This document shows, in pieces, positions 1,975 through 59,126 of a DNA stretch of 64,000 bases. The stretch covers positions 496,001 to 560,000 of the forward strand of contig MU004195.1 of assembly GCA_010093605.1 (NCBI GenBank), in the 5' to 3' direction. The first letter of the stretch is position 1; each line of letters begins with the position of its first letter. Origin of the DNA: Lophium mytilinum (taxonomy: Eukaryota). The translations under genes and the position numbers were made by a program. A model generated the notes under the pieces. It searched no databases and was not told the origin of the DNA. It saw only the letters and a list, made by a program, of their open reading frames with translations.

Positions 1975-3731
1975 CGTAATGCAACTTCAATGCTTGCAAT
2001 GTTCTTGGTATACTTGTAGCCGACATTGAAAGTAGCCGAGTAGAGGAGTGTCTACCTTTACAAGTTCAGTACGCATGCCTCTACTGGATTCAGCACCTTC
2101 AGAAAAGCGGTCGTCAGCTTCACGGCAACGACCAGATTCTCCAGTTTCTGCAAGAACATCTTCTTCATTGGCTCGAAGCTCTTGCCTGGATGGATAAGAT
2201 CTCTGAAGGAATAGACGCCATCACTACTTTGGAGTCTATTGCTCTTGTAAGCCAATGTGAATGCGGTGTGAATCTTCGCTAATTCTGTGATTAGCTTAAA
2301 AATTGTTCCTCTCTTTTGAGTTTCTCTCATGACATCCTACGATTCATCCGCAGTAGCCGCACAACAATTGAGCAAGCTCCCAATCAGACCTATTGCAGCG
2401 CGCTCATTTTTACGCCAGCGTTAAGCACAGTCAGGGAGCAGTTCAAGGATTGCATACCTCAATGGATACAAAGACTACCGAAGGTTGAAGATGACTGGAA
2501 CGCTTTATTACAGACACTCGAGGGCCATGCAGCTCCGGTCAACGCCGTGGCCTTCTCTCACGATAGCAGGCTGCTAGCGTCTGCATCATGTGACAAGACA
2601 GTCAGGCTGTGGGACAGTAGGACAGGAGCAGTCTTACAAACGCTGAAGGGCCATTTGGACTACGTTACTAGTGTAGCGTTCTCTCCAGACAGCAAGCTAC
2701 TGGCATCGGCATCAAGAGACAAGACCATTAGGTTATGGGATACCCAGTCAGGTGGAGAAGTACAGATACTTAGGGACCATTCAGACTGGGTCTGGGCTGT
2801 ATCTTTCTCACCAGATGGAAAGCTACTGGCCTCGGCATCAAGCGATAGAACAGTCAAGCTATGGGATGCCAAGTCACGAGTAGTGTTATGGACGCTTGAT
2901 AGCCATGTAGGCTACGTAAGCGCTGTAGCCTTTTCACCTGACAGCAAGTTACTGGCATCGGCTTCAAGAGACTCTACAATCAAGCTTTGGAACACTCAGT
3001 CAGGAGAAGAACTACGGATGCTCAAGGGCCATTCAGACTGGGTTATGGCTGTGGTGGTCTCATCAGATGGCAAGCTGCTAGCCTCAGCATCAAGCGATGG
3101 GACGATCAAGCTATGGGACATCCAGTCGGCATCAAGCGAAGGGATGGAAAATCTATGGGACACCCAGTCAAGTGAAGCACTACAGACGCTTATTGGTTGT
3201 TCGGACTGGGTCGTGACTATGACATTCTCATTTGACGGCAATCTGCTAGCATAAACATCGAAAATTGGAATGTTTAAGCTATGGGACGTCCAGTCGGGAG
3301 CAACAATACAGACACTCGAGGGCCATTCAGCCCCCGTCACCGCCGTGGCTTTCTCTCCAGATGACAGGCTACTTCTAGCCTCAGCATCACGCGACAAAAC
3401 GGTTAAGTTATGGGACACCTAGTCTGGATTGGCGCTACAAACGTTTGAAGTTGATAATTTTGTTCAGGACCATTCATTCTCCGATGATGGAACCTTCCTC
3501 CAGAGCGATCGAGGACCGTTACATAGCGACTTTCTTTCCAAGGGAACAGTCGTATCACAACCAAGCGTTCCACCTTCTCTCTTTCTTCGCGAACAATGAA
3601 TAAACCATGGCATCGAAAAGATTCCCTGGCTTCCCTCTAAGTATCGGTTAGGCTGCGTTGCTATCTGCGGAAACGTTGTTGCTTTTAGTCATCCATCCGA
3701 TCGAGTATCATTTATAGCATTTAACCTTTGA
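1975..3731 (+). pseudogene. 5'-truncated NACHT-WD40 (HNWD/HET-E-like) NLR pseudogene
   Basis: Post-NACHT linker (LPLQVQYACLYWIQHL...FLQEHLLHWLEALAW), intron near 2247-2293, YCSALIFTP motif, 7 WD40 repeats of ~42 aa and a typical WLPSKYR tail. In-frame stops at 3252 (TAA), 3420 (TAG), 3597 (TGA); no NACHT P-loop upstream. Confidence 0.88.
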
Positions 3732-4109: not shown

Positions 4110-5194
4110 TCAGGCACCCGGATGATCCCTCAACGGCTCAAACCTTCCACTCGTCTCGCGCGAATGAGCGGGTCTAGCAAAAGGTTCATAAGCCGTCTCA
4201 GTGGTCAATGGCTTCTCATCCTCCGCCAAGCCCGGAGTCGAGATCTTCTCATACGTGCCACCTTCCGCCTTTAACGTGCGCAGACCACGACGGCGGCGTG
4301 CGGAGTCACTTGACTTGGCGGACGAGGACCACAGTCCGCCCTTGTTCGAGCGGTGGTGCGGGTTATGGCGTCCGGAGCAGCAGCAGGCGCTCAAGAGCCA
4401 GAAGAGCGTGCCGGCCCAGGCGAACAAGACGGCGAGCCAGCCGAGCTGGAGTGCTTCGGTGCCGATGAATAGATGGACGTTATAGGGTTTGAAGATCTCG
4501 TTCATACTGCTGACTAAGGCGGAGAAGATCACGGTGCTGGTGAGCACGGCGGCGAAAATGAAGAGTGATAAGATCTGTATCACGACTGTCAGTTGCTTGT
4601 ATTTGCGGTTGAGCAGGGGAAGAAGGGACGTACGATGCTGAAGAGCCAAGTGAGGAAACTCCCGATGCGGCTGAAGATGGCAAGAAAACCACACAGGATG
4701 GTCGCGAGCGAAGCCCACAACGCGATTTCGTAGGCAATGAACAGCCAAAACCCAGCACCGCGGTAGGTATCGAGTGTCTCCTGCGCCGCTTTACCAAGAA
4801 TCTTGCCCTCTTCATCGCCCGTCATATTCTGCTGCGCAGAATCCAACCCCCAGGTCATAATGGGATCGAAAAAGTAGTCCTTCATCTTCGGTGAGCACCA
4901 AGTGACGACCCTCTCGTTGGTATTGCGCTCGCAGAAGTTCCAGAGATGGATCTCGTAGACTCGCGCGAGTTGATTGCTTTCGGCGGATTGCTTGAGTGCG
5001 GCTGTGAGTTCGTCACTTGGGAGGTTGGACGCCGTGACATCGAGTTCCGTGAAGTTGGCTTTGAAGAAGTGCAACCCGCTCACCGTGCCTTTCGAGCCCC
5101 AGCCGGAGATTGTGATCAGGACGATGCACACGAAAGAGGCGATAGTAAGGACCCAGGGCGTGAAGATGCACGCGGCTCGTGCTGCTTTGCCCAT
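4110..5194 (-). CDS. SUR7/PalI family integral membrane protein
   Basis: Exons 5194-4634 and 4574-4110 (intron 4575-4633, GTACGT...CAG). N-terminal TM, YEIHLWNFC motif, three further TMs and CCSGR..H tail. Confidence 0.85.
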
Positions 5195-6342
5195 TTTTGA
5201 GGACTCGAACGGTGCTGCTGCCCGTGGTAATGGCTTCCTTGGGGCTGCTGCCGTTGGCTTCTTGCAGTCTCAAAGCTGCCTTCTCGACTGTAGCGCAAAT
5301 CGAGGCTTCGCAAACAGCAAATCCTCCAGATCGCAAGCGGAAAACAGACAGCTGAGACAGTCGGGCGGCGACCAGGAGCGAGATTATTATACGAGGATGG
5401 AGCTTATCGCAGACTTGCTGCTATGAGATACCCATAGTCCGGTCCTTTAGCTATGTATCATAGGGCAGGCCAGCTCAGTGTCTAGCTCGCGGCGCTCAGC
5501 TGAGGGAGATGCAGCTCTAACACCCGGTATCCCCTCCTTCTCGGTAGTGAACACCAGAACTGTGCAGTCGCATATGCAGCCAAGAACGAGGCTGGAAGAT
5601 GCTTTCGCCTAGTGGTCGAGCTTGACCGACAAAGTTTATAGCTGGCTGTGGATGTTTTATCTTTGACCGCTATTACATCCTGATGATAAATGTAGCGGCC
5701 TCTGTTAAATGAGTAGATTGTGATACCAGCACGCGTTTAGGCGGACTGACACAAATCAAACCGTCGCTTCTTTGAATGCAGAAATGATCGCACTGCCAGA
5801 GTGTCGAGAGATGTGAGAATCAGTGGCTTGAGTGCTTGACCGATACCAAACTTGCCAACTGCGGGCTGCGGGCCACGATCTAGACTCCAGAGCATTTTGA
5901 GCGTCGGTGTCGTGCTCAGCTGCGGCTGAAGATGGAGTGTAGGGCTGAAGATGGAGTTCAGTCCGGCTCCGCCTATCGAACATCGCGTGGCGCTCAGCTG
6001 AGCTTGTTAGTAAGAGAGAGGCTTGCATTTCGAGACCGCTAGTGGATATCACAGTTTCGGTCTCGCCAAATTATTCACTCACTTGTACACACCACAATCT
6101 GCATGCCAAGGCGAACGTAGAAGCCAAGTCCGAGATAAGCTCAGCTCACGATGTTGCAGCAGAGCTTGGAGCATGCAGGCTCATAATATAGAGTATGCTC
6201 ACTCCATTCATCATTCTGCCCGCTCCCTATCCCCTCTCCTACGCGTCGAACTGATCACCTATCTTCCAACGACTTCATTCTAGGGACGTCTATTATTTTC
6301 TCTCCAATTTCGTTGGCAACGGACGATACCATCCTCGCAGAG

Positions 6343-33962: not shown

Positions 33963-36900
33963 ATGGAAACCCTCCATCTTGCTTCCCAGGTCACCGACTG
34001 TGGACGCGACTTTCGGAGCCTTGGTGAAGCACTGAAGCAAGTTCCCCGTTTCGCGGCGCAAGTGTCACCAGAAAAGATCAACGATGAGTTCGATAGGTTC
34101 AAGATATGGGCTGGAAACGTTGCTGCCCACAGAAAAGGGCGGCGAAGTTTAGAGTATCGCCTTCGCGATGCAGTTCATCTCAAGAATGAAGCAGGCGAGC
34201 TTCTTACAGCCTTGCAAGAATCTCTGAACAACAGTAAGTAATTCTGAGGAATCAAATATATGAAACCATCACTCATGCAATACTAGCTCTGAGCATTGTT
34301 ACTGGAGAGAAAGTACCATGGGATGAGATGTCTGATTCTGATACAGATTCCGGTACTGAAGCTGGTTCTCCGGAGCCCGACACGAGAGCGCTGGAAGATG
34401 AAACGGAGTTGAAGCAATTATTCTCTGGAATACGAGACACGATAAGTTGCCTTTTTCGCCTTTCGATGGCTATCCGAAATCCTGCCCCAAATACCCAATC
34501 CGGCAGTACCATCACTGCGGACAAATCCTACTACGAAGACTACGATATTGAACACGTGAGGGCAAAATTCCACGAGGAGAAGTTCCACAATTGCGACAAA
34601 GTCTTGATGGAACGACTGGGCAGAGCCATCTCAGCTCGGCGTCAGTATTTGAGTTATCGCGAAGAGCATTATAAGAAGTTGGCAAAAGGAGTCGAGAAAA
34701 TTGGATTCGAAGAGGCAAGGACTGAACAAACGGCGAACAGCACTGAAGCATCACCCATGCCAAAACTCCTCGGCACTCCTACAGATGATAATAGATTAGT
34801 TGAGGATAAGCTGGTCGATGACGGAGAAGATGACTTATCTCAATCGTCCCGTGCTACATCAACGAATGCGACGATCCGGGTGCCCTCTTTGCCGAAGGAG
34901 TCATTAGAAAACGAACACTACGAATGTCCCCTTTGTTTCATGATCGTTTCCATACACACGAGACCGGCTTGGAAGTACGGCATTTCCCGATTCTTCGCAA
35001 GACGTGTTGCTGACCGCTCACAGGGAACATGTGTACCGCGACCTTCATCCTTACGCTTGCACGTTCAAGCACTGCAATACAGCCGACCGCCTGTATGATT
35101 CTCGGAGAGCATGGTTCAAGCATGAAATGGAAGCCCACAGAGCTGTATGGCAATGCATAGAGGGGTGTGAGAAGGCGTTTCCTTCAGAAAATGACTTTGT
35201 ACAACATGCCCAGCGAGCACACCCTGAAGTTGCTTCTCAAGAAGCCATAGCGATCTTGAAGAAGACCTCGATACGAAGCGCATACGGGACGGATAAAGCC
35301 AGCTGTCCGATATGTGACCAGTCCATGAGTCTTCGGGCTCTGCAAAAACATTTGGGTCGCCATCAAGAGCAGCTGGCACTGTTCGCACTGCCGGTCAATG
35401 AGGACGACGCTGAAGATGAAGATGATGGCCCAAACTCCACTGAAGAACCAGAGCAGCAAGAATCGGGTGACCAGCGCTTCGAAAGAACTAGCTCAAGTTC
35501 TGAAGATGAAGACGTTGACATACCGGCCGTCCGCGACCATACCACCGATCGATTCAAGACCATAGGGTATGAGTACATTCCGCGCGAGTTCGACGAGGCC
35601 GGCGAGAAGAAAGTGACGGTCACTGGGTATCTGCTGGACGGCCGCGAGTATAAGTGCCGGACATTCTTCACCCTGAACAGAGGCGATAAGCTATTTATGC
35701 TCGCAACGGAGTGTGCTCGCGTATTAGGTTACAGCCACTCCGACTTTCTCTTCAAGGAGAACAGGTCGCTGTACAAAATCATTGCTACACAGGTTGACAA
35801 GGACGACCTTATCCGACAAGAAATACTGCCATACTCGTACCGGTCGCGCCAGATCGCACTTGTGACCGCCCGGTCTATGTTCCGGCAGTTCGGCAGCAGA
35901 CTTGTTTTGAATGGAAGACCTGTCCGCGACGATTATTGGGAGAGCAAGGCTAGAAAGCAAGAATCTGCAGCCGATGGAGCCCCGCTCTCTCCCGTCTCCC
36001 CCGATTCAGGTCCCACAGACCCAAACCTCCCCAAAGTGCCTTCCGGGTGGATGTCTCAATGGGATAATCTGTAGGTCCCTCCTTCCCCTCCTCCGACCAA
36101 CGATTTCCTTCCCCTTCATACCTCAGTGCTATCCACCGCGCATACGTGTTCTTTCACTAGATAATCGCTTACACCCGTTATCTTTACTAGCTACCCCGAA
36201 CACTACTACAGCCAATTCGCTTCCGGCGCCTCCCAGTGGACTATCCCTACCTTCGTCGCGCCTACCGCGCGCCCGGCGCTTCGCCCGCTGGCACACCGGC
36301 CCAGCGTAGGACTAGAACCAAGCGAAGGCCAGACGGAGCGTGACCAAAGCAAGAACAATCGCAGCAACGGTGATGAAACAAGTGTTGAAAAGACAATCGA
36401 AAGCCGCGTTGCTCGCATCAAAGCTCGTGTCGCTGGACTCACTGGTGATGCGAAAGTCGAGCAGGAGGATTTTGATACAGTCTTGGCGGCCGATAATGGC
36501 AAGTTCAGATGGCCACATCTCCCGGAGGCTGGGCGAGATGGGAAGGAGTTTGCGTGTCCGTACTGCTCTATGATTATCAGGGTTGACAGCCAAAGTTGGA
36601 AGTAAGTACCCTACAAACCCCGAATAAGGGATGCCTAATTCTGACCATTTGTTAGAAAGCATGTGTATTCGGACCTTGGGCCTTATATCGCGACTGGAAA
36701 TGCCGAGAAACAAGCTGCAGATGAGGTCACCGAGAGCACGAAGACAGTACACAAGGGAGCTGACACCAAATCTACAACTGAATCCGAGCAGACAGCAGTT
36801 CCAACAGCTGCAGATAATTCTAGAGTCACAGATAAGCTTCAGCATCTCTTCGAACCTTCGCCGAGAGATACGGGAGACTTCGACGATGGCGTTAACAAAT

Positions 36901-55588: not shown

Positions 55589-56320
55589 TCACACCCCACT
55601 AATGAAGTCCAACAATCCAAAAAGTAACTTGTTATCAACACTACACCCCTCATTTTGATTCTGTGCCTGTCGAAAGCCTTCGTAAAGCCAGCTCCGAATC
55701 GTGTGTGCATCTAACCCTCGAAAGTTTTGCTGGGAAATAAGGACGTAGGCTTGCGTACACGGCGTGGTGGATTCGTGACCCTTTGCAGGGAAAGAAATAC
55801 AAGAAGATGAGTTGGAGGACATGAGGGCGAGCAGTTCGGGGTCTTCAGTGTATGGAATGTCCAGAGATAGGGTTGGAGCAGAAGTTGATGAAGGCGGGGG
55901 GAAGGCGCATTGTGGGTTTTGGAGTTGACATTGCTGGAGACATGCTTCTGGTAATACTGGTAGTTGTTGATGGCAGACCACGTCTGGTATCTCGAATGCA
56001 GGCGCCTCTGAGGCTAGGTCCTTAGACGTGTTGATATTGTGCCTCGAAGGTATGTATCCAGACTCAACCCTCACCACCACACCGCTTCTCCATCTTTCGA
56101 GCTCTACCCTTGAAAACTCAAGCTCCTTTTTAATCTCCTCCATCGCCTTGTTTGCATCTTCCAAGCTCTGTTCCAACGACGCGATGTAGTCTCGCCGCCT
56201 CTCACGATGTCTTCGCTGATTATTCCGGACGCGTGTGAGGGTATGGGCGGGGGATACGGTATTCCGTTTCTTGACGGGATGGCTAGCAGGCTTATCCAGT
56301 GTATTGATTGTTGGAGGCAT
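55589..56320 (-). CDS. bZIP transcription factor with Cys-containing C-terminal domain
   Basis: Basic region RVRNNQRRHRERRRDYIASLE plus a leucine-zipper-like heptad; C-terminal STTPC..AY.LI.QQN..W...GF...EGC.VDN.LLF.LLD.IS; 7 Cys downstream of the zipper. Confidence 0.85.
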   Translation of the reverse strand: MPPTINTLDKPASHPVKKRNTVSPAHTLTRVRNNQRRHRERRRDYIASLEQSLEDANKAMEEIKKELEFSRVELERWRSGVVVRVESGYIPSRHNINTSKDLASEAPAFEIPDVVCHQQLPVLPEACLQQCQLQNPQCAFPPPSSTSAPTLSLDIPYTEDPELLALMSSNSSSCISFPAKGHESTTPCTQAYVLISQQNFRGLDAHTIRSWLYEGFRQAQNQNEGCSVDNKLLFGLLDFISGV

Positions 56321-56424
56321 TCTTGCTGCGGTCGTTTGTTGACGATTGATAGGTACCTGGACAGGTTAAAGTGGACGTGAAGGGTGACGGAACGTTGGCG
56401 ATCTCGAAATCAGAACGCCAAGAC

Positions 56425-56583
56425 CGGTGACATATCGACGGCACCCTAGCTCCAATTTATATTGTTGTAACCGAAGGTCACACGGCATAGTTCAGATCGT
56501 GAAACTTGTGTTATCGGTGACATATCGACTATATATGAGCTTTAAGCTTCAATGCTGTTAAGCATGCAGCGGTGACATATCAC
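56425..56583. promoter_or_regulatory. Triplicated motif CGGTGACATATC in the bZIP/arsM bidirectional promoter
   Basis: CGGTGACATATCGAC at 56425-56439 and 56515-56529; CGGTGACATATCAC at 56570-56583. Confidence 0.7.
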
Positions 56584-56778
56584 TATTTCAAATGCAGATA
56601 TATATCTGGTCTGAGTGCTTCTCCTTCAACTCCCAATTCCAATAACTCAACTCAAGCCTTAGGTTCTTCAGGCTTAATATTTCATCTCTCTCAATCCCAA
56701 CTTCACTTCCCCTATCAAGCTCTCTAAACTGCACTCCCCAGACTCCAGTCCCAGGCTCCATTCCCAAACTCCGTCCCT

Positions 56779-57901
56779 ATGGATCCCCAAACCATCCACA
56801 CCGCCGTGCAATCCCGCTACGGCACCGCCGCCCTCTCCCCCACCTCCCCGCACAGCACCTCCATCGCCACCGCCTTCGGATACAGCCCCGCCGAACTCTC
56901 CTCCATCCCCAGCGACTCTAACCTGGGCCTCTCGTGCGGCAACCCCCTCGCACTCGCCGCCCTCTCCCCCGGCGAAACCGTCATCGACCTAGGCAGCGGC
57001 GCCGGCTTCGACGTCTTCCTCGCCGCCAAACGCGTCGGTCCCACCGGTCGGGCAATCGGGGTGGATATGAACGACGCCATGCTCGCCCGCGCCAACAAGA
57101 ACCGCGAGAAGTTGGGTCCAGAGGGCGAGAATATCATCTTCATCAACTCCAACATCACAGCGACACCCTTAGAAACTGAGATCGCCGACTGCATCATCAG
57201 CAACTGCGTCATTAACCTCGTCCCCACCTCTCTGAAGCCCCTCGTCTTCTCTGAGATCTACAGGTTGCTTAAACCCGGTGGGCGGGTGGCGGTGTCGGAT
57301 ATCCTGGCTCGCAAGCCGTTGCCGCAGGAGCTGAAGGAGAGTATGGCGCTGCATGTGGGGTGTGTTGCCGGGGCGGAGGAGGTGGGAGCGTACGAGGGAT
57401 GGTTGATGGAGGCGGGGTTTGCTGGTATGTGTTGGCGAGATGAGGTAGAATGATTTGCTGATGAAAATGTAGATGTGCTGATTGTGGACGCGGGGAATGA
57501 TCTGAATGTGTATAAATCTGGCGTGGAAGGGGGTGAGAATGGATGGTATGGCAGTGGGACGGGAGCGCAGACGGAAGGGAGATCTGGGGACTGCTGCGGG
57601 AACGGGAGTGGAGAGGAGAAAGGGAAAGATTGCTGTGATAGGGCTGATTACTGTCATAAGAAAGATTGCTGTAATATAGCTTGTTGCGGCGGTGGGAAGA
57701 AGAAGGATACGTGCTGCGGAGACCGAAACGATGACGGGATCTTGAAGGAAATGACTGCGGAGCACAAGGAACTCGACTTCAATGAATGGGCTGGTAAGTT
57801 ATCCAATTCTCGTACATACTCTGAAGCTGTACATTTCGCTAACGGAGGTGTTTTCAGGGTCGTTCAAGATCTATGCTGTGAAGCCGCAGGTCGAGCACTA
57901 A
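56779..57901 (+). CDS. arsM: Arsenite S-adenosylmethionine methyltransferase with Cys-pair-rich insert
   Basis: NLGLSCGNP, VIDLGSGAGFDVFLAA..VG..GRAIGVDM, IISNCVINL, LKPGGRVAVSD, VGCVAGA. Introns 57425-57472 and 57794-57857; ends DFNEWAGSFKIYAVKP. Confidence 0.93.
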
Positions 57902-58103
57902 GAGTATCGTCAGCACACATCGAAGAGATCTAAACTTACAGGCAACCAATCACTGTTCTTGACGTGGGGGATTTCAATTAATGAACTAAGTCCAGCATGA
58001 ATCAGTGTAGTGAAAACTTAGACCTGGGAACCTTGATTCGCCTCATGAACCAGGCCAGAAGCTCTATGTTCGCTATGCTACAGGACTGCCATCTCATCCC
58101 CAA

Positions 58104-59126
58104 CTAGTTTGTCGGTAATCTGCCCACAACCTCGGCCATCTCTTCATCCGTGTAGATCCTGAAGCCCTTCGCCTTGGTGACACTCGCCAGCTGCACATTC
58201 TTCGAGTCCAGCTTCTCCTCCATGACCTGCTTCAGTGTCTTAAGCACCAGCACCTCGGCCTCCTCGAGCGAGAGAGACTTGTGAAACTCGTTCTGGAGCT
58301 CGGCTTGAGCACCCTCGGAGCCAGATCCTATGGCCTTGGCATCGTAGCGGTAGAATGTGCCGGAGGGTTCCGCGTGATATCTGTGTTCCAGTCAGCTAGT
58401 TTCTCTGTGTTTCCTTGCCCACAAATTATAGCGCCATAACCTACAGCGATGGTCCATCCTCATCGTATCCCGCGATAAGCAAAGCCACACCAAACGGCCG
58501 GCTCATGATGCTCTCCTCGCCCTCCGCACCCTCGCCAAATCGCAGCGCCAGATCGCATATCGCCTGTGTGCAGCTCTCAACCCGCAGCGGTTCGTTGTAG
58601 TGGAAGGCGTGGTTCTGTGACTCGACGCGGGCGTGCTCGACCATGGAGCGGGCGTCGGCCTGCAACCCAGACATGGCGCATCCAATGTGGCTGTCGATCT
58701 CAACAATCTTTTCGACAGAGGAGGTTTCGAGGAGAGTGGAGGTCACGCGCTTTTCGACGCCGAGGATCACGCCCTCGCCGGTTGCGACCTGGAGGTTTGT
58801 GAGCTTGTGTGGGGAGATTGAGTGTCTGTTGGTATTGGGATTTGAGGGCGAGCTTACGCCTATTGCCGTAGAGCCAAGCTTAATGGCTTCGAGGGAGTAT
58901 TCGACTTGGAAGAGGCGGCCTTCTGGCGAGAAGGTGCTGAGAAATTGTGAGCGGAGCTGGAGGAGAGGGTTTGAGGGTTCACCAACTTGATGCCACGATC
59001 TAAGTTTTATGTGATTAGCTAGGTTTCTATGCGCATGTAGGATACTCTACTTACCATATTCGCTGCGAGCTATGAACTACCAAATGTCAGCGCACATAGA
59101 CAGATATTTGGAGGTTGAAGTACCAT
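58104..59126 (-). CDS. PUP2: 20S proteasome subunit alpha-5
   Basis: [96 protein letters not shown]; multi-exon. Confidence 0.96.

Follow-up and report, generated by a model that had tools for sequence, protein, structure and literature searches.

A bZIP-like gene paired with arsM and a 13-bp element before both genes: a candidate regulatory module for arsenic methylation in filamentous fungi

Introduction

How a eukaryotic cell could control arsenic methylation is the question raised by a locus of the fungus Lophium mytilinum (assembly GCA_010093605.1, contig MU004195.1, positions 496,001 to 560,000 of the forward strand; this whole stretch of 64,000 nucleotides is called the window below). 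In the window, the gene for an arsenite methyltransferase (arsM) stands head to head with the gene for a bZIP-like protein, and the spacer between the two genes carries three copies of a short element. Is the bZIP-like protein a dedicated regulator of arsM, and is the element the site to which it binds? Fungal arsenic methylation adds to arsenic volatilisation and to methylated arsenic in soils and crops. In bacterial ars operons that contain arsM, a cysteine-bearing, metalloid-sensing ArsR is encoded beside arsM and has its operator in its own promoter. The logic of the fungal pair is the same, although ArsR is a winged-helix repressor with another fold and another mode of DNA binding, and the fungal genes are a eukaryotic monocistronic pair. 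Our literature searches found no description of this bZIP family, of the motif or of any eukaryotic arsM regulator. Among the matches listed for the core string of the element (TGACATATC), none concerned fungal gene regulation, and the available portions of papers on Cladosporium, on Hebeloma and on a Botrytis Starship do not describe the regulator.

Two fungal systems are close to the question. According to the accessible part of one study, Yap8 is clustered with ACR2 and ACR3, recognises a 13-bp element in the promoter that they share and requires Cys132, Cys137 and Cys274, and the cysteines of the carboxy-terminal cysteine-rich domain (c-CRD) of Yap1 respond to diamide, N-ethylmaleimide (NEM) and menadione (PMC6545440). 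In the excerpts available of another, the bZIP protein ENOG503PUQW is described as an accessory gene that is often present in Starship arsenic clusters, with a proposed Yap8-like role (PMC12256816). The general idea of a bZIP regulator in a fungal arsenic cluster, which a sequence-only reading of the present locus had put forward, has thus already been published.

Results

A triplicated element in the spacer between the two genes

The start codons of the bZIP-like gene and arsM are separated by 458 bp (Table 1), close to the 460 bp that the sequence-only reading had given for this head-to-head pair. Exact copies of CGGTGACATATC begin at 56425, 56515 and 56570, all on the forward strand and all within the spacer, with spacings of 90 and 55 bp. 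Copies 1 and 2 have a 15-mer in common (CGGTGACATATCGAC), and copy 3 reads CGGTGACATATCACT; the triple motif with its common 15-mer had been noticed before and is exact. The three copies are also the sole matches in the window when up to one mismatch is allowed, as the sequence-only reading had supposed, and the 9-mer core of the element does not occur in the 64 kb outside the spacer copies. In dinucleotide-preserving shuffles the mean number of matches to CGGTGACATATC was 0.21, and three matches were reached in none of 100 shuffles.

Table 1. Positions of the gene pair, the element copies and the protein regions in the window
Feature	Position	Strand	Remarks
bZIP-like gene (putative regulator)	55589..56320	-	single exon, 243 residues and stop; open reading frame; one unjoined RNA contig across
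C-terminal cysteine domain, residues 183-243	55592..55774	-	C188 at 55757-55759, C226 at 55643-55645
Leucine-zipper-like coiled coil, residues 46-78	56087..56185	-	heptad-repeat helix; AlphaFold2 model
Basic region, residues 26-45, HTLTRVRNNQRRHRERRRDY	56186..56245	-	alignment A1
Shared spacer between both start codons	56321..56778		458 bp
Site 1, CGGTGACATATCG	56425..56437	+	centre 111 bp from bZIP ATG and 348 bp from arsM ATG
Site 2, CGGTGACATATCG	56515..56527	+	TATATAT (56530-56536) directly after
Site 3, CGGTGACATATCA	56570..56582	+	centre 203 bp upstream of arsM ATG; ATATATAT run at 56598-56605 after
arsM exon 1	56779..57424	+	methyltransferase core; C53 (GLSCGNP), C143 (SNCVINL), C195 (VGCVAGA)
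arsM exon 2	57473..57793	+	includes Cys-rich stretch with five CC pairs; from translation
arsM exon 3 and stop	57858..57901	+	complete protein 336 residues

The pair is conserved in distant relatives

A metagenome scan with the alignment of the bZIP family gave 39 loci, which fall into 27 non-redundant groups, and arsM was sought around each by tblastn with exon 1. arsM adjoins the bZIP-like gene in 20 of the 39 loci (14 of the 27 groups), in 12 of them head to head as in the window and in 8 in tandem with the bZIP-like gene first. Where at least 2 kb of upstream and at least 1.3 kb of downstream DNA were present, arsM was found in 10 of 12 groups, the exceptions being L007 and L034; in the remaining 11 groups one side is too short for the presence of arsM to be judged. 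The pairing of the two genes is therefore maintained in distant relatives and in at least two gene arrangements. The sequence-only reading had asked whether divergent synteny is conserved; adjacency holds in these 20 loci, but divergence does not hold throughout, with 8 of the 20 in tandem, and the linkage is not universal.

Sequenced genomes of named species contain the same pair. Consecutive locus tags are found in Cladophialophora carrionii (G647_02208 for arsM and G647_02209 for the bZIP-like gene) and in Phialophora macrospora (PV04_08341 and PV04_08340), and both proteins come from contigs of equal length in 11 further named species (Mytilinidion, Glonium, Xylogone, Delitschia, Lentithecium, Periconia, Dendryphion, Clohesyomyces, Plenodomus tracheiphilus, Pyrenochaeta sp. 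and Phaeosphaeria sp.).

The flanks of the pair are made up of ordinary genes. STI1/HOP, FolB and UDPGP recur (L003, L004, L007, L009, L012), on differing sides of the pair, and because the order relative to the STI1 and FolB neighbours changes among L003, L004, L009 and L012, the two genes have stayed together through rearrangements. In L002 an intact bZIP-like gene with its upstream site is followed downstream by a 45-residue remnant of arsM (3117-3251, 49% identity to residues 140-184). An open reading frame with a Tc5-transposase helix-turn-helix (HTH) domain (4971-5387) is near the remnant, so that L002 looks like a case of arsM decay in one lineage. The neighbourhood of L007 is that of L004 (STI1/HOP, the bZIP-like gene and a RING-finger gene) minus the arsM between the bZIP-like and RING-finger genes, and its bZIP-like gene and upstream site are intact. 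An ACR3 arsenite-efflux gene was found about 4.3 kb downstream of the pair in L037 (10935-11531; TIGR00832, 1.1e-24, first exon), and apart from it no ACR3, ArsH or ArsC gene was present in the examined flanks. None of these three families occurs among the 53 open reading frames of at least 130 residues in the window either, in agreement with the sequence-only reading.

A 13-bp element precedes both genes

Across relatives the element has the 13-bp consensus CRGTGACATATCR, that is, C-(G/A)-GTGACATATC-(G/A). Sites were counted in the 27 non-redundant loci, which comprise 191,674 bp in total and 17,429 bp of promoter zones, a promoter zone being up to 600 bp upstream of the bZIP-like gene or the spacer between it and arsM. 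Exact GTGACATATC occurs at 24 sites in 16 of the 27 loci, every one of them in a promoter zone, where 0.03 would be expected; the DNA outside the zones (174 kb) has none. A weight matrix based on 42 sites gave 41 matches in the zones of 23 of the 27 loci and none outside; since the matrix was derived from the counted sites, the zero outside the zones is the control. Of the four loci that had no match, two have less than 110 bp of upstream DNA and two are short contigs with partial bZIP matches. The positions that flank the searched 10-mer are C in 31, G or A in 40 and G or A in 41 of the 42 sites, and beyond the 13-mer the flanks hold no information content. Thus, both promoters carry CRGTGACATATCR, which is absent elsewhere in the DNA examined; the motif is present in every arsM-upstream region of the related loci and in most bZIP-upstream regions, which answers the check that the sequence-only reading had proposed for orthologous intergenic regions.

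The placement of the element is also conserved. The site proximal to arsM lies 89-203 bp from the ATG and has the same orientation in 15 of 15 cases including the window, and for the bZIP-like gene, 19 of 23 cases have a site no more than about 250 bp from its approximate start, in one orientation or the other. Tandem loci usually have one site before each gene (L003, L004, L012), and L035 has one only upstream of arsM. The site upstream of the bZIP-like gene is kept in four loci that have no arsM (L002, L007, L019, L024). Within the 13-mer the outer CG..CG is symmetric and the core asymmetric, and the element contains a TGAC half-site. The near-palindrome GTGA-CATA-TCAC, which the sequence-only reading had pointed out, can be read in copy 3; as a functional form it was rejected, because the last position of the conserved element is G in 31 and A in 10 of the 42 sites.

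Local duplication can create short repeats, and the 15-mer common to copies 1 and 2 could have arisen in this way, with the adjacency of the two genes a coincidence. Chance is excluded, and we give hardly any credence to such an artefact: no shuffle out of 100 had three copies, the flanks of the sites are not conserved, and both the motif and the gene pair are met again in named genomes and in unrelated contigs (14 non-redundant).

When the weight matrix was run on the whole window, five matches scored at least 14 against a shuffle mean of 0.5, and three of the five are the spacer sites. The remaining two, TGGTCACATATCG (14.8) at 35308-35320 on the reverse strand and CGTTGACATACCG (14.3) at 35513-35525 on the forward strand, are 205 bp apart and both lie within a long open reading frame (34944-36071) that encodes an Rsc7/Swp82 chromatin-remodelling domain. 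This pair of weaker matches could be due to chance or could be a weak extra target.

arsM encodes an arsenite methyltransferase

The 336-residue arsM product has by far its best family match to NCBIfam NF008823 "arsenite methyltransferase" (249.4 bits, E 4.4e-74); the score is 14 bits below the cutoff of 263, which is prokaryote-set, and the match ends at profile position 229 of 272, at a Cys-rich insert of the fungal protein. Exon 1 encodes the core of a class I S-adenosylmethionine (SAM)-dependent methyltransferase (Pfam Methyltransf_31, 6.8e-30, residues 63-201), and the best solved relatives are the arsenite methyltransferases 5evj, 4kw7 and 4fr0. C53, C143 and C195, in the motifs CGNP, SNCVINL and C(V/I)AG, align to 5evj, and the three cysteine motifs are retained in all 13 neighbouring arsM genes that cover them. 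Cysteines of this type we take, from work on CmArsM, to be the As(III) ligands.

The Cys-rich insert is encoded at 57556-57730 in exon 2 and has five CC pairs (GDCCGNG...KDCCDRADYCHKKDCCNIACCGG...DTCCGD). No Pfam family matched the insert, which is located past the end of the NF008823 match and may be a metalloid-binding tail.

The bZIP-like protein has an invariant, non-canonical basic region

The 243-residue protein (collection entry P0001) had 84 relatives in a word search. Exhaustive searching with a profile extended the family to 182 clusters at E<=1e-30, or 443 at E<=1e-10. The named members are from the Dothideomycetes, Eurotiomycetes (Onygenales, Chaetothyriales), Leotiomycetes and Sordariomycetes. 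Nearly all of them are annotated as hypothetical, uncharacterised or "BZIP domain-containing", and a few have the unrelated name "Trappc4". Precomputed Pfam assignments were absent for all 84 relatives.

Across the 29 relatives of alignment A1 there is no variation at residues T27, L28, R30, V31, R32, N34, Q35, R36, R37, R39 and R41, giving the pattern TLxRVRxNQRRxRxR. The canonical basic signature of bZIP proteins was taken as N-x2-A-A-x2-(S/C/F)-R. The best PDB profile matches to the basic region were non-significant (the Yap-type/HapX-type bZIP 7aw7 at E 0.18 and ATF-2 at E 0.54), and in their register V31 takes the position of the Asn, N34-Q35 that of the Ala-Ala, H38 that of the Ser/Phe and R39 that of the Arg. 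In this register the final Arg and the Yap-typical Gln are retained and the rest of the signature is not, and an invariant L49 follows ten residues past R39. The register therefore points to a bZIP-like protein with unusual DNA-contact residues. Yap-type basic regions have Gln and Phe/Tyr at the Ala and Ser positions; Q35 agrees with this, whereas H38 stands instead of Phe and V31 instead of Asn, as judged from a match at E 0.18.

AlphaFold2 predicted one helix from residue 24 to 80 (pLDDT 90-98), followed by a disordered linker and a compact C-terminal domain. The linker is variable among relatives and has at least one cysteine in every one of them. A homodimer model of residues 20-85 was parallel and in register, with a score of 0.40 against 0.01 for the best control, agreement among three runs in 100% of contacts and a partner pLDDT of at least 82. 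In the benchmark 21 of 30 solved homodimers and 0 of 23 single chains attained this mark; for eukaryotes it was reached by 17 of 29, and by only 1 of the 7 that lack an older solved relative, so that the result for the present protein may reflect memory of known bZIP structures. A fold search with the whole model returned only long-helix matches (Z <=5.7), with Pap1 (1gd2) among many unrelated coiled coils, and so gave no information on relationships.

These features bear on an alternative in which another, unlinked transcription factor binds the element, the bZIP-like gene and arsM are merely co-regulated, and the bZIP-like protein has other targets. An asymmetric and oriented site would suit such a factor, as would a bZIP-like protein with no canonical Asn and a score under the Pfam threshold. 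On the other hand, the element accompanies the bZIP-like gene even in the four loci that have no arsM, it contains the bZIP-type half-site TGAC, and its 13 bp with the conserved outer CG..CG match the expectation for a dimer whose half-sites are extended. The basic region and the core of the site are, moreover, both near-invariant, although identity of the bZIP-like proteins falls to about 23-27% (best aligned segment). We consider an unlinked factor unlikely, while keeping it as a serious contender.

The C-terminal domain has two invariant cysteines

All 29 relatives in alignment A1 have both C188 and C226, and so do all 20 translated loci of alignment A2. Modeled alone by AlphaFold2, the C-terminal domain had a pLDDT of 83.9 and a pTM of 0.73, with the order beta-alpha-alpha-beta-beta-alpha. 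The top match of this model among 48,161 chains in VIA-align was 1sse_B, the chain of the oxidised Yap1 redox domain in which residues 589-650 are the c-CRD (Z 4.3, rmsd 3.6, 59 residues aligned; no chain reached Z>=5). The same chain was the top match in Foldseek (E 0.84, probability 0.41, TMq 0.52), and the structural scores for it fall in the range where chance matches arise. An ESM Atlas feature search with residues 165-243 gave as nearest clusters proteins named "Transcription factor PAP1 domain-containing protein", the first with a score of 0.94, 189 of 256 features in common and PF08601 on 60% of its members, and the second with a score of 0.92 and PF08601 on 54% of its members.

Sequence searches were negative for such a relationship. 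A PDB profile search with the C-terminal domain gave one chance-level match (2vxg, E 0.16), Pfam found nothing meaningful for the domain in 20 family members, and no match to Yap proteins reached significance in the Pfam and PDB searches. In a search among longer proteins, the best 120 of 378 matches all belonged to the same bZIP family and included no Yap1-sized or PF08601 protein. The models suggest, as a lead and not as proof, that the family could be a distant offshoot of the Yap/Pap1 proteins. The sequence-only reading had called the protein independent and not Yap8-like. That is doubtful, because the Yap1 c-CRD is the top structural match, the embedding neighbours carry PF08601 and the basic region aligns with the Yap type, all of these being weak resemblances. 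Like Yap1 and Pap1 with their c-CRD (PF08601), the present protein combines a bZIP and a C-terminal cysteine domain in one chain; it has two invariant cysteines where they have three, and no recognisable n-CRD.

The resemblance also raises the question of the signal. The module could be real and its signal not arsenic, with the bZIP-like protein a general sensor of thiols, electrophiles or oxidants, or of selenium, tellurium or antimony, and the methyltransferase one stress target among others. The nearest structural and embedding neighbours of the C-terminal domain are indeed the Yap1/Pap1 redox domain, whose cysteines in Yap1 respond to diamide, NEM and menadione in the part of the source that was available (PMC6545440). 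The bZIP-like gene and its site are also kept with no adjacent arsM in L007 and L034, and the ACR3 gene of L037 has no motif upstream. Even so, the sole gene repeatedly kept beside the regulator is arsM with all three cysteine motifs, and antioxidant genes do not recur in the flanks examined. We therefore hold a signal other than arsenic to be quite improbable.

Gene models and RNA contigs around the pair

The start codon of arsM is at 56779 and its stop codon ends at 57901, which is also where the feature of the sequence-only reading ends. Two GT..AG introns, at 57425-57472 (48 nt) and 57794-57857 (64 nt), are bridged by spliced contigs of the public run X1. The run is labelled "RNA?" and was used, for gene models only, because its contigs bridge these introns. 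Collection protein P0288 (336 residues), which is recorded there under Lophium mytilinum, is 100% identical to window arsM exon 1 over the full query, and the nearest named relatives of both the bZIP-like and the arsM proteins are from Mytilinidion, Glonium and Cenococcum.

Around the spacer, one contig of run X1 ends at 56403, one begins at 56662 and a small one lies at 56452-56610. As these contigs define neither transcript ends nor levels, no start site and no expression ranking was drawn from them. The small contig (159 nt, low depth) spans sites 2 and 3; it might represent stray DNA in run X1, or else a minor upstream transcript of one of the two genes. On the strand of the bZIP-like gene, a TATAAA at 56456-56461 is upstream of site 1, and site 1 falls between it and the end of the bZIP contig at 56403, a placement that would also suit a repressor. 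One contig extends from arsM into the convergent gene for a proteasome alpha subunit (57900-58600; intron 58381-58444, CT..AC). The 3' ends of the two transcripts seem to abut or overlap, because this contig covers both genes, although it does not demonstrate a single transcript.

Discussion

We think it fairly probable that the locus belongs to a conserved module of the Pezizomycotina, in which arsM is accompanied by a dedicated, divergent bZIP-like protein of the AP-1/Yap kind that would bind the 13-bp element, sense arsenicals through its cysteines and induce both genes. According to this proposal, the bZIP-like protein would form a homodimer via its zipper (residues 46-78), and the invariant non-canonical basic region would bind CRGTGACATATCR before arsM and before its own gene. 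Trivalent arsenic or a methylated arsenical would bind C188 and C226 of the c-CRD-like domain together with cysteines of the linker, a step proposed by analogy with Yap8 and with the c-CRD of Yap1. Binding of the arsenical would then alter the activity or the location of the regulator, so that arsM and the regulator gene would be induced. The regulator could be an activator or a repressor. The autoregulated two-gene module with a readable site that the sequence-only reading had imagined fits the linkage and the motif; its divergent arrangement is not found in every locus.

Several points weigh against the dedicated module. Binding of the bZIP-like protein to the element is predicted from their co-occurrence alone. 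The protein matches Pfam bZIP_1 at E 0.027 with 15 bits, the gathering cutoff being 27.6, and the canonical DNA-contacting Asn is replaced by Val (V31) in the register discussed above. Dyad symmetry of the element is limited to the outer CG..CG and one T/A pair, and a strict orientation relative to arsM is unusual for the site of a homodimeric bZIP protein. An arsenic sensor and a general sensor of thiols or redox state would fit the resemblance to the Yap1 c-CRD equally well. The ACR3 gene of L037 has no upstream motif at a score of 8 or above. The linkage is common and not universal: L007 and L034 have no arsM within 6 kb on either side, and the two genes are on separate contigs in Zopfia, Massariosphaeria, Cirrosporium and Phaeosphaeriaceae sp. 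PMI808. Finally, the loci are related to one another, so that their counts are not counts of independent events.

A stronger version of the dedicated module is possible, and we put it forward tentatively, at somewhat less than an even chance. The bZIP-like protein may be the first dedicated transcriptional sensor of arsenic methylation in eukaryotes: an offshoot of the Yap proteins, spread over the whole Pezizomycotina, that has lost the Asn and gained a new, oriented 13-bp specificity (CRGTGACATATCR), is autoregulated, and senses As(III) or MAs(III) directly by a two-cysteine domain together with linker cysteines. The locus as a whole, apart from this stronger version, we rate as a clustered metalloid regulator of the Yap8 type whose target, site and subfamily are new.

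The likeness to Yap8/Arr1 of Saccharomyces cerevisiae is close in several respects. As far as the available parts of the literature on Yap8 describe it, a cysteine-bearing AP-1-like bZIP gene lies beside arsenic-resistance genes in both cases, the protein acts, or in the present case would act, on a 13-bp element in a shared or adjacent promoter, and both proteins have cysteines in the middle and in the C-terminal part. The neighbour is arsM here and ACR2/ACR3 there. The elements have equal length, but ours is the asymmetric CRGTGACATATCR and that of Yap8 (Y8RE), in the same partial source, is the pseudo-palindrome TGATTAATAATCA. The basic region of the present protein also differs, reading V..NQ..HR with no canonical Asn, and the site is found upstream of the regulator's own gene as well.

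The arsenic cargo of Starship elements in Aspergillus and Penicillium, compared here by the available description alone, likewise has a bZIP gene repeatedly beside fungal arsenic genes. That cargo is described as mobile and built on arsH, arsC and arsB, whereas the present pair lies among the housekeeping genes STI1, FolB, UDPGP and proteasome, with none of those three. No member from Aspergillus or Penicillium is among the listed names of the bZIP family.

The locus supplies a candidate regulator family (182 clusters at E<=1e-30 in four classes of the Pezizomycotina), an exact hypothesis for the binding site and residues to mutate; with these three, the regulation of arsM becomes directly testable. 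If the proposal is true, the family would be a second, structurally divergent case of the Yap8 principle, in which a cysteine-sensing bZIP protein is encoded beside its metalloid-resistance target, and it would show that an asymmetric site can be read by a bZIP protein that lacks the canonical Asn. The element could also serve as an arsenic-responsive promoter part for biosensors. Finally, if the stronger version given above is true, the arsenic-methylation capacity of soil fungi could become predictable and engineerable from sequence.

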